Below are positions 7,680 to 10,726 of a stretch of DNA of 43,944 nucleotides, one piece after another. The position numbers and the translations under genes were made by a program. This DNA is from an uncultured Muribaculaceae bacterium (GTDB lineage Bacteria > Bacillota_I > Bacilli_A > RF39 > UBA660), in contig CAZMCS010000001.1 of NCBI GenBank assembly GCA_964565085.1, positions 1 through 43,944 on the forward strand. The letters are read 5' to 3'. The stretch's first letter is position 1. Each line of letters begins with the position of its first letter. The notes below the pieces were generated by a model, which worked only from the letters and a program-made list of their open reading frames with translations, was not told where the DNA came from and did no database searches.

Positions 7680-9620
7680 ATGAATAAATTTTTAATTATT
7701 TCAAAAATATTAATTTTTTTATTTATCAGTTTTATAATAGTCAATATTTCTTTTTATGTGTATGCTTATATCACTCCAAAGTTAGATATTGGTACTGCAA
7801 ACCAAATTCAAATCTATGATAAGGAAAACAATATTGCATTTGAAAATCTTGATGGAACAAAATGGGTTACTATTGATAAGATTTCAAAAAATATTATAAA
7901 TGCTACAATATCTATAGAAGACAAGAATTTTTATAATCATCATGGATTTGATTATTTAAGAATTGTAAAGGCTTTAGCAATTGATTTTATAAATAAATCT
8001 TTGAATCAAGGAGCTTCTACTATATCTCAGCAATATATTAAAAATTTATATTTAGATTTTGATAAAACATGGAGTAGAAAAATAGAAGAAGCACTACTTA
8101 CACTAGAATTAGAGGTACATTATAGTAAAGACGAAATCTTAGAAGGATATTTAAATACTATAAACTATGGCGCGGGAAACTTTGGAATAGGTCCAGCATC
8201 AGAATATTATTTTAATAAAAGCGCGGATAAATTATCTTTAGCCGAAGCTAGTATAATTGTCGGAATACCTAAAAATCCAACTGGATATAATCCTATAACA
8301 AATCTTGATAATGCAAAAAAAAGACAGAAACTAATACTAAATAGTATGGTTAATAATGATATGATTACAAAAGAAGAAGCTGAAAAAGTTTATAATGAAA
8401 AATTAGAATTTTATGGTAAAAAAGATTCAGAAGAATTAGCAAGTCTTTTATATTATAAAGATGCAGTTTTAAGTGAATTAAAAAGTATTAAAACTATTCC
8501 ACATTCGTTATTGGAAACAAAAGGATTAAAAGTATACACAAATCTTGATATTGAAGTACAAAAAAAACTTGAAAATATTATTAATGAAGAGATGGCAAAT
8601 GAAAGTGAACTTCAAGTTGCTTCTATTGTTGTAGAACCTAATACTGGTAAAGTTTTGGCTTTAATTGGAGGAAGAAACTATTCATCTTCTCAATTTAATA
8701 GAGTTACTCAGTCAAAAAGGCAGGTTGGTTCTACTATGAAACCTTTTTTATACTATGCTGCTTTAGAAAATGGATTTACTGCTTCTTCTTCATTTACCAG
8801 TGAAGCAACCACATTCAATGTAGGCAACAATAAAACATATTCTCCTAAGAATTATGGGGAAATTTATGCTAATAAAGAAATCTCTTTAGCGAGCGCTATT
8901 GCATTCTCTGATAATATTTACGCTGTTAAAACTCACTTATTTTTAGGTGAGCAAACATTAGTAGATACTGCTAAAAGAGTTGGAATAACTGCAGAATTGC
9001 AAGCAAATCCTTCTTTACCATTAGGAAGTAATGAAATAAATATGCTTGATTATAGTAATGGTTTTGTTACTTTAGCAAATGAAGGTATAAAGAATAAAAG
9101 TTATTTTATTACTAAGGTAACTGATATGAATGATAAAGTTTTATATGAATTTAATTATGAAGAAGAAACAGTTTTAAATAGTAGATATGTTTATATTTTG
9201 AATGAATTGTTATCAAATACCTATAATTACTCTTTTGTAGATTATACTTCTCCTACTTTGCTTAGCGTAAAATCTATTCTTAGCAAAAAGTATGCTGTTA
9301 AAAGTGGAAGTACAGATACAGATTACTGGACTATCGGTTATAATCCAGATTTGCTTATTATGACTTGGACAGGTTATGATGATAATAAACCTCTTGCAGG
9401 TTCACAATCTAAAATTGCAAAAAGAATATGGGCGAGAACAATGGAAAGCGTTTTAGAAAATAATACAAATAATTGGTATGAAATTCCTAAAGGAATTACT
9501 GCGTCTTTGGTAAATCCATTATCAGGTGAAATTAAAGAAACGGGATCAACCGTTCTACTTTATTATATTAAAGGTACAGAACCTTCAATGAGTGAAGAAA
9601 TATTTAATGGTCTATTTTAA
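7680..9620 (+). CDS. Class A penicillin-binding protein (bifunctional glycosyltransferase/transpeptidase, PBP1A-like)
   Basis: TM anchor. GT51 motifs EDKNFYNHHGFD, GASTISQQ and RKIEEA. Transpeptidase motifs STMKP (SxxK), SDN and KSGST. RBS GGTGGTG lies before the ATG. Confidence 0.92.
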   Translation: MNKFLIISKILIFLFISFIIVNISFYVYAYITPKLDIGTANQIQIYDKENNIAFENLDGTKWVTIDKISKNIINATISIEDKNFYNHHGFDYLRIVKALAIDFINKSLNQGASTISQQYIKNLYLDFDKTWSRKIEEALLTLELEVHYSKDEILEGYLNTINYGAGNFGIGPASEYYFNKSADKLSLAEASIIVGIPKNPTGYNPITNLDNAKKRQKLILNSMVNNDMITKEEAEKVYNEKLEFYGKKDSEELASLLYYKDAVLSELKSIKTIPHSLLETKGLKVYTNLDIEVQKKLENIINEEMANESELQVASIVVEPNTGKVLALIGGRNYSSSQFNRVTQSKRQVGSTMKPFLYYAALENGFTASSSFTSEATTFNVGNNKTYSPKNYGEIYANKEISLASAIAFSDNIYAVKTHLFLGEQTLVDTAKRVGITAELQANPSLPLGSNEINMLDYSNGFVTLANEGIKNKSYFITKVTDMNDKVLYEFNYEEETVLNSRYVYILNELLSNTYNYSFVDYTSPTLLSVKSILSKKYAVKSGSTDTDYWTIGYNPDLLIMTWTGYDDNKPLAGSQSKIAKRIWARTMESVLENNTNNWYEIPKGITASLVNPLSGEIKETGSTVLLYYIKGTEPSMSEEIFNGLF

Positions 9621-10726
9621 TCTTTTTTAATCTTAATTACAATTTGATACATATCTTCAAAGTCAAACTCTTCAATGTCCGCTATAAAACCTTTATTATT
9701 TAGTTCACTTGTTAACCCTCTTACAGAATTAATAGCTTCAGATATTGATTTAGATGGCTTTAAATCTTCTATAATAGGAATTGTATCTTCTTGTTTTTGT
9801 TGCTTAAATTCTTCTACAAGTTGATTTGTAGGAAGAATCTCTTCAATTGGTTCCACTGCGGGATTATCAAGTTTTAATTCTTCTTTTACATCAAAATTTA
9901 ACACTTCCGCTGATTCCAATTTTTTAATAGAATCATCATTTGTTGAATCAATATCAATCTCTTGAAATGGATTAATAGTTGAAAGTTCTTGTTTAATTTG
10001 GTCAGATGGTTTATTTATGTCTGTGGTTTCATTTATTTGTGGTGATAAAAGCATATCCATATTCATTTTAGGAGTATCTAAGTTAATTATTTCTTCTGGT
10101 TTATTATTTATGTTTTGTTTCCCTAAAAGTTTTGATATTTCTTCTTCTGTTTGTTTAACAGTCAATCTATTTACTATAATTTTATTTAACATTTTTATTT
10201 GAAGAGCAGGATCTGATATAGAAAGCAAACTTCTTGCATGTCTTTCAGATATTTTATTATTAAGTAAAGCATCCTGTACTTCTTCGTCAAGAGATAATAA
10301 TCTGATTTTATTTGCCACAGTAGATTGTTTAACTCCTATTTTTTGAGCTATATCATCCTGAGTTAATCCCCTATTTGCCAATTTTTTATATGACTGAGCC
10401 TCTTCCATTGCATTTAAGTCTTTTCTTTGAACATTTTCTACAACTGCTAATTCTGCACTTGTATCATCATCAGTTTCCATTATAATTGCAGGAACACTTA
10501 TTAATCCAGCAATAGTAGAAGCCTTGTATCTTCTCTCGCCTGCTATTATTTCGTACTTATCTCCTATTTTACGCAATAAAAGCGGTTGTAAAACACCATG
10601 CTGTTTAATAGAAGCAGCAAGATTGTTTAATTCCTGTTCATCAAAAGATAAACGAGGTTGAAATCTATTTGGAATAATATCTTCAACTAATATATTTATT
10701 ATTTCTTTTTTATCTTCCACGGACAC
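9617..10726 (-). CDS. noc: ParB/Noc-family CTP-switch DNA-binding protein with Noc-like specificity residues and a Noc-like C-terminus. It has an atypical architecture.
   Basis: IIPNRFQPR and GERRYKAS ParB boxes. The HTH is [48 protein letters not shown]. The C-terminus ([18 protein letters not shown]) resembles the B. subtilis Noc tail, recalled from memory. It sits directly next to rsmG, the canonical noc position. GTG start, with an in-frame TAA 15 nt upstream. Confidence 0.75.
   Translation of the reverse strand: [369 protein letters not shown]

Follow-up and report, generated by a model that had tools for sequence, protein, structure and literature searches.

According to the accepted model, Noc inhibits division because its N-terminal helix ties the DNA to the membrane. 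What, then, does a Noc-type protein do that has no such helix, and which proteins serve the binding sites around it? This question is raised by a noc-like gene (positions 9617–10726, minus strand; GTG start, 369 amino acids) in a 43,944-nt stretch around the replication origin (oriC) of an uncultured gut bacterium (contig CAZMCS010000001.1 of assembly GCA_964565085.1), which we refer to as the window. Overall, we consider it probable that the gene encodes an orthologue of Noc that is specific for Noc-binding sites (NBS), has no membrane anchor, and coexists with a separate ParB; with low certainty, it may act through partners of its linker.

A Noc-type protein without a membrane anchor

The gene lies in the canonical noc position, i.e. 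directly downstream of rsmG (10775–11485, minus strand) and in the same orientation, with a 48-nt gap to the rsmG stop at 10775. When the six-frame open reading frames (ORFs) of the window were searched by phmmer with the Soj, Spo0J, and Noc proteins of B. subtilis, it was the sole ParB-family match. This agrees with the sequence-only reading, an earlier account of this DNA made from its letters, which had named it the only such gene in the window and placed it beside rsmG. Pfam recognised a ParB N-terminal, cytidine triphosphate (CTP)-binding domain (residues 8–100, positions 10427–10705, minus strand; PF02195, 106 bits against a cut-off of 26.3) and a ParB-type helix-turn-helix (HTH) DNA-binding domain (residues 102–200, positions 10127–10423, minus strand; PF17762, 111 bits against 22.6). 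The CTP-binding motifs FQPR (residues 22–25), GERRYKA (63–69), and ENVQRKDL (97–104) are intact and their columns are invariant in 34 aligned homologues. The C-terminal domain (residues 326–369, positions 9620–9751, minus strand), a helix followed by a β-hairpin, had been suspected to be Noc-like, and its 47 terminal residues can indeed be aligned to the Noc C-terminus.

Judged by its position and sequence, the gene is an orthologue of noc, of the Noc and not of the ParB type. On the NCBIfam models, the protein scored 272 bits with nucleoid_noc and 161 with the generic parB_part; the respective values for the true ParBs of the same clade were 231–238 and 198–204. The closest solved structures by sequence are the Noc entries 7nfu, 7ng0, and 7ol9 (177–192 bits), with Spo0J (1vz0) at 157, and the same Noc entries came out on top in a Foldseek search with an AlphaFold2 model. 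The latter, built from a 34-sequence alignment, is confidently folded over residues 5–203 and 326–369, and its DNA-binding domain superposes on the Noc–NBS complex 6y93 at 1.4–1.8 Å. Likewise, the ORF matched B. subtilis Noc with 177 bits and Spo0J with 149, and it shares 44–48% identity with characterised Noc proteins across the folded 200 residues.

The residues that determine DNA specificity are informative in this respect. At positions 173/179/184/201 (Caulobacter ParB numbering), Noc carries QKKR and ParB RTAG; in the NBS, Q173 recognises A1 and R201 recognises C6, given a lysine at 179 or 184 or both, whereas every extant ParB has R173 and G201, and dual-specificity variants recovered in a deep mutational scan mostly have T or S at 201 (Jalal et al. 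2020, PMC7383237). In the present protein, these positions are Q134, K140, S145, and R162. The sequence-only reading had called them Noc-like, and they conform to the published rule (Q173, R201, and K179), with a serine at 184. Out of 269 family sequences examined, 234 could be parsed, and every one has Q at 173 and R at 201 (including all 126 parsable ones among 148 cluster representatives), while position 179 is K or R in all but five, which have T. R173 and G201 are absent from every parsed member. The QKSR combination thus fits an NBS-specific protein and not the dual-specificity class. Besides, the protein has no N-terminal ParA-interaction motif of the LGKGL type. It resembles the Noc proteins of B. 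subtilis, Geobacillus thermoleovorans, and S. aureus in its gene position after rsmG, its CTP motifs, Q173/K179/R201, the presence of NBS, and its C-terminal domain.

What sets it apart from these characterised proteins is the N-terminus. The N-terminal amphipathic helix, helix α2, and the connecting loop are absent, and this holds across the family. Just 11 residues stand before the conserved box. A longer N-terminus cannot be encoded, since a TAA in frame with the gene (positions 10742–10744, minus strand) lies 15 nt ahead of the GTG, as the sequence-only reading had recognised. The PNRFQPR box is preceded by 15–18 residues in 121 of 121 close homologues and by 14–22 in 144 of 148 cluster representatives, compared with 40 in B. 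subtilis Noc, and the in-frame space upstream of the gene is equally short at the relatives' loci. In an alignment to Geobacillus Noc (7nfu), query residue 4 corresponds to residue 23 of the structure. A hydrophobic-moment scan, a check which that reading had called for, found no segment that is both cationic and amphipathic, either in the N-terminus or in the linker; such segments are confined to the folded domains, where most of the positions score in B. subtilis Noc as well. An upstream start or a frameshift that hides a helix is excluded by the TAA together with the 48-nt gap to rsmG, and a membrane helix inside the protein or at its C-terminus was rejected from the scan of hydrophobic moment and charge. 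In characterised Noc, Jalal et al. (2021, PMC8429893) describe α1, α2, and the α2–β1 loop as features that only the Noc family has, an N-terminal amphipathic helix was predicted in all Noc homologues examined by Adams et al. (2015, PMC4331003), and α1 is required: peripheral localisation and function were both lost in NocNΔ10 (PMC4331003).

Might the short N-terminus and the inserted linker merely stem from a wrongly called start, from faulty assembly, or from decay of the gene? The GTG start codon, the origin of the contig in a metagenome-assembled genome (MAG), and the low complexity of the linker would suit such an explanation. However, independent assemblies show the same architecture, in 121 close homologues as well as in 148 cluster representatives, and the relatives' genes start at the same place, usually with ATG. 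Moreover, independent assembly of Logan run SRR8925737 yielded an identical protein, and the folded domains are strongly conserved. An artefact is therefore extremely improbable.

The anchor-less type is widespread. In an exhaustive phmmer search of residues 1–205 against 1.84 billion cluster representatives (50% identity), of which the best 150 matches were taken, the match began at residue 1–9 in all but three representatives (at 11–18 in these), the proteins measured 242–744 amino acids, and none of the 150 had an N-terminal extension. Gut metagenomes of humans and animals commonly contain the family, and its host clade is a large, uncultured group of gut Bacilli with about 25% G+C. Records of the relatives are labelled uncultured Bacilli, Tenericutes, Firmicutes, or Clostridium sp. 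CAG:628, and some of the MAGs are mislabelled Muribaculaceae; the taxonomic labels of this lineage's MAGs are unreliable. One homologue of a neighbouring gene bears the name Candidatus Faecisoma merdavium. The window also contains the sporulation genes spoIIR (4691–5224, minus strand) and spoVT (35862–36389, plus strand), and relatives have spoIID and spoIIID (L184–L186); sporulation genes and a class A penicillin-binding protein (PBP) thus occur in a lineage that public records assign to Tenericutes, Mycoplasmatota, Muribaculaceae, or Clostridia. In the paper library that we searched, no description of an anchor-less or acidic-linker Noc came up, nor of adjacent parS and NBS sites.

NBS and parS sites beside the origin

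Which DNA sites, then, are available to this protein? The sequence-only reading had noted perfect parS about 16 kb from the noc-like gene, and we found two such sites (26288–26303 and 26418–26433), with 0.03 expected by chance. The window further contains NBS sites, which that reading did not mention: four perfect copies of ATTTCCCGGGAAAT at 20546, 26324, 26457, and 31498, against a mean of 0.09 in shuffled sequence. All four are flanked by T and A, making up the full 16-bp NBS (20545–20560, 26323–26338, 26456–26471, and 31497–31512) identical to TATTTCCCGGGAAATA of known Noc; in all, this flanking was seen for 205 of 206 NBS. Because of its QKSR residues and these perfect sites, an NBS-binding Noc orthologue is the simplest reading of the protein.

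Two of the four NBS are paired with the parS sites in the gyrA–ffs intergenic region. The first parS abuts the gyrA stop codon and is followed by an NBS 20 nt further on; the second is followed by one after 23 nt. All these sites are perfect although the spacers that separate them have diverged, which argues for selection on the sites and not for a recent duplication. Between the two pairs lie three A/T-rich direct repeats of 28 nt at 18-nt spacing (26338–26401), and directly after the cluster, before tadA, comes a bacterial small signal recognition particle RNA (26498–26589, plus strand; Rfam RF00169, 53.6 bits). Of the remaining two NBS, the one at 31497–31512 is intergenic, upstream of pth, and the one at 20545–20560 falls within a comK-like ORF between dnaN and recF. 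This ComK-family gene (20245–20700, plus strand; Pfam, 158 bits) has homologues at the same dnaN–recF position in relatives (e.g. L103, L109, and L112); in B. subtilis this position is occupied by a small S4-like gene.

Scanning metagenome contigs for a parS followed by an NBS within 10–40 nt yielded at least 120 stretches, of which we read 80 loci (L064–L143). These have 19–38% G+C (79 of them at most 31%) and together hold 236 perfect parS and 202 perfect NBS, which often alternate; the richest locus has seven parS and nine NBS. In 76 of the 80, the flanking ORFs match ORFs of the window, overwhelmingly gyrA, tadA, and dnaX at ~40–70% identity, and the clusters thus fall in the intergenic region near the origin that also harbours the cluster of the window. 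Interleaved parS/NBS clusters are therefore found downstream of gyrA in at least 76 related metagenome contigs. In addition, about 25 relatives have a perfect NBS in the interval from jag to mnmE, ~4 kb upstream of noc (e.g. L004:5909, L005:5909, L007:5893, L012:5851, L051–L058:1900, and others), a place where the window has none.

This arrangement, in which NBS are interleaved with parS next to oriC, distinguishes the present system from characterised Noc. It suggests that clamps of Noc and ParB would be loaded side by side near oriC, and its conservation suggests a functional coupling of the two proteins. Such a link is plausible given that, in B. subtilis, Spo0J and Noc jointly influence the early positioning of the Z-ring (PMC6852036) and that Noc controls initiation in S. 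aureus (PMC5540599).

A probable separate ParB for the parS sites

Sites lying this close together could also be served by one protein. The sequence-only reading had considered a simplified or merged ParB/Noc system whose protein may have dual specificity; spelled out, Spo0J would have been lost and this one protein would serve both parS and NBS. This possibility is in line with a single ParB-family gene and no ParA in the 44 kb around oriC, with parS–NBS distances of 20–23 nt and an interleaving that recurs in at least 76 related contigs, with the replacement of K184, and with two relatives (L037 and L187) that have no soj–spo0J where synteny predicts it. The window holds perfect NBS in addition to parS, though, and the specificity residues speak against a merged system: Q173 with R201 is the NBS-specific combination, dual variants mostly having T or S at 201, and the R173 and G201 that are invariant in extant parS binders (PMC7383237) are replaced by Q and R in all parsed members. 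Moreover, the same type of protein coexists with a canonical soj–spo0J in two genomes (L038 and L202), and ParBs of the R..G type with LGKGL are common in low-G+C contigs that share synteny blocks with the noc loci L035–L037. A merged system is thus very unlikely.

In the window itself, the place of soj–spo0J is occupied by a convergent class A PBP gene (7680–9620, plus strand), whose stop codon shares the TTAA at 9617–9620 with that of the noc-like gene; both this overlap and the missing soj–spo0J neighbours had been read correctly from the letters, and the phmmer search with B. subtilis Soj found no Soj/ParA-like ORF among the six-frame ORFs of the 44-kb window. The order noc, PBP, rpoE-like gene, prfA is kept in an abundant relative (P0094). 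The rpoE-like gene (7074–7508, minus strand), which neighbours the PBP gene in relatives as well, encodes a 144-amino-acid protein that has no Pfam match and a strongly acidic C-terminal half; its position and composition resemble those of the RNA polymerase delta subunit (RpoE). In another relative (L189:1754–3137), noc is separated from the convergent PBP gene by two inserted genes, one encoding a methyltransferase and the other a nucleoside deoxyribosyltransferase-like protein, which marks the junction downstream of noc as a rearrangement hotspot. A scan for promoters and terminators around the noc-like gene gave results no better than shuffled sequence.

Where, then, is soj–spo0J in this clade? 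Among 46 loci from species-representative genomes, noc, soj, and spo0J are adjacent only in L038. The Noc of this locus matches the present protein in its short N-terminus, its acidic linker, and its C-terminus, and the accompanying Spo0J is of the canonical type (KALGKGLEQLF motif at the N-terminus, GKSRSH in the HTH). A second species (L202) has the order mnmG-rsmG-noc-parA-parB-...-ychF-rpsF-ssb-rpsR, and its Noc (479 amino acids) is again anchor-less, with an acidic linker and QKNR. Homologues of the L038 ParB (65–69% identity) are abundant in gut contigs of 26–28% G+C, where they lie away from noc in the order whiA-parA-parB-DUF951-...-ychF-rpsF-ssb-rpsR and carry R-[M/I]-[R/K]-G as specificity residues. 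The genes uvrB, holin, lgt, trxB, and whiA precede parA in these unlinked loci and follow noc in L035–L037; this shared block indicates that the ParB and noc contigs belong to one broad clade in which noc and soj have been rearranged. The ParBs of the clade (P0122 and P0178) have R173/G201, LGKGL, and an adjacent parA. The noc-like protein is like such chromosomal ParB/Spo0J proteins in its fold, CTP clamp motifs, and origin-proximal loading site, yet differs in having Q/R for R173/G201, no LGKGL motif, and no parA beside it.

Since the parS sites are perfect and the noc-like protein has NBS-type residues, and given this clade-level evidence, it is likely that a separate ParB is encoded elsewhere in the host genome. 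The suggestion of the sequence-only reading that soj–spo0J have moved elsewhere is hence favoured, by the adjacent genes of L038 and L202 and by the unlinked loci of relatives; for the host genome itself, we infer it.

Several observations weigh against this explanation. In the host genome, the 44-kb window showed no ParB or ParA besides the noc-like gene, and we found no assembly that pairs a ParB with an unlinked Noc-like gene: the ParB assemblies CAVFQZ01 (P0143), CAZTVR01 (P0127), and CAZEBP01 (P0231) did not recur among the Noc-like loci (e.g. P0008 in assembly CAYZDP01 and P0027 in CAYXHQ01), and the abundant ParB variants P0178 and P0165 had no sample in common with the Noc-like P0094. 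L037 and L187 have rplI-dnaC at the expected soj–spo0J position: the block up to rpsF-ssb-rpsR is missing at its predicted place (L037:7607–10415 and L187:12003–18656), where whiA or ftsH runs directly into rplI-dnaC. In these two loci, the soj–spo0J block is relocated or partly lost, and some lineages may hence have lost it. The closest relative found by tracing L035 through its uracil-DNA glycosylase was L187, where ftsH leads to rplI-dnaC without parAB. At the protein level, position 184 is S, N, or A in the family and not the K of characterised Noc, and the 272 bits (reached in two stretches) stay below the curated TIGR04285 cut-off of 315; the relative P0094 reaches 287 on that model. To judge from sequence, then, the protein is Noc at its DNA end, in its residues and CTP motifs, and departs from what defines Noc in two respects, the membrane-targeting N-terminus and the curated family score. 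As a side observation, one ParB contig stems from the Hadza sample C-REDO_G_11_1585, and the name of the L012 MAG also begins with Hadza C-REDO, a possible match.

An acidic linker and possible modes of action

How might such a protein act from the DNA? Between its DNA-binding and C-terminal domains lies the linker (residues 203–325, positions 9752–10120, minus strand). The sequence-only reading had described an acidic insertion of about 120 residues here, which the composition bears out: net charge −16, no arginine, 10% D, 13% E, 10% N, and 8% P. The AlphaFold2 model predicts it to be disordered, with a per-residue confidence (pLDDT) below 50 over most of residues 204–322 and short helices at 223–227 and 302–312. 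In 120 complete cluster representatives, the linker spans 76–496 residues (median 210) and is net-negative throughout (−10 to −85), unlike the short basic counterpart in B. subtilis Noc (19 residues, charge +5). An alignment of close relatives revealed conserved islands amid otherwise unalignable sequence, namely [DN]-[IM]-D-x-L-L-[KR]-P, I-N-P-F-Q-E, P-E-I-[LM]-[DN]-F-[DE], and N-S-x-I-E-E-F-[RK]-Q-Q, a pattern typical of short linear interaction motifs. In the present protein, the linker motifs fall at residues 219–229, 248–256, 270–277, and 300–312. D-I-D-x-L-L-K-P can be likened to the FtsZ C-terminal peptide D-I-P-x-F-L-R, although we offer this as an idea only.

On the preferred explanation of an NBS-specific, anchor-less Noc alongside a separate ParB, the protein would load at NBS as a CTP-dependent clamp and spread over origin-proximal DNA, by extension from the biochemistry of B. 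subtilis Noc and ParB, and a separately encoded canonical ParB would serve the neighbouring parS sites. With low certainty for each of the following steps, the Noc-like protein might not bind lipids directly, its action might be mediated by proteins that the linker motifs recruit or sequester, the starting point of this action might be a nucleoprotein complex that forms next to ParB at the origin, and the outcome might be inhibition of division or organisation of the origin.

Alternatively, the protein may have kept NBS binding and lost nucleoid occlusion, and may now organise or insulate the origin, modulate the loading of ParB or SMC, or regulate DnaA-dependent initiation. Every NBS we saw lies within ~15 kb of dnaA, the sites are interleaved with parS, and ~167 kb of loci around parAB or ung genes, whose distance from the origin is not established, contained no parS and a single NBS position. 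The sampled DNA is almost entirely origin-proximal, however, and B. subtilis has one NBS per 57 kb, a density at which 167 kb would hold only about three; so small a sample does not prove that NBS are confined to the origin. The helix that B. subtilis Noc needs (PMC4331003) is gone, which argues that the old mechanism has been lost as well; further points in favour are the control of initiation by S. aureus Noc (PMC5540599), the joint role of Spo0J and Noc in early Z-ring positioning (PMC6852036), and the interplay of origin-proximal ricS sites with ParB (bioRxiv 10.64898/2026.03.06.710092). We regard such a repurposing as rather unlikely.

A further idea, which we put forward tentatively as a possible but doubtful one, is that the anchor-less Noc and ParB form one composite complex at oriC on their interleaved NBS/parS arrays, and that the linker motifs act on a factor of division, replication, or segregation by recruiting or sequestering it. 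Functional analogues would be MipZ of Caulobacter and RicO/ricS of S. aureus, in that a second factor at parS or the origin could couple origin position to division or organisation. The analogy ends there, as the Noc-like protein is related neither to MipZ, an ATPase of the ParA type that is bound to ParB, nor to RicO, which relies on an amphipathic helix at its C-terminus.

In summary, a large family that has no helix yet keeps the NBS-reading residues, the CTP motifs, and the cognate sites offers a natural test of whether membrane tethering is needed for Noc-type function. If the composite origin complex proved true, it would amount to membrane-independent, origin-anchored nucleoid occlusion or origin control with a MipZ-like logic, and membrane tethering would not be a universal working principle of Noc.

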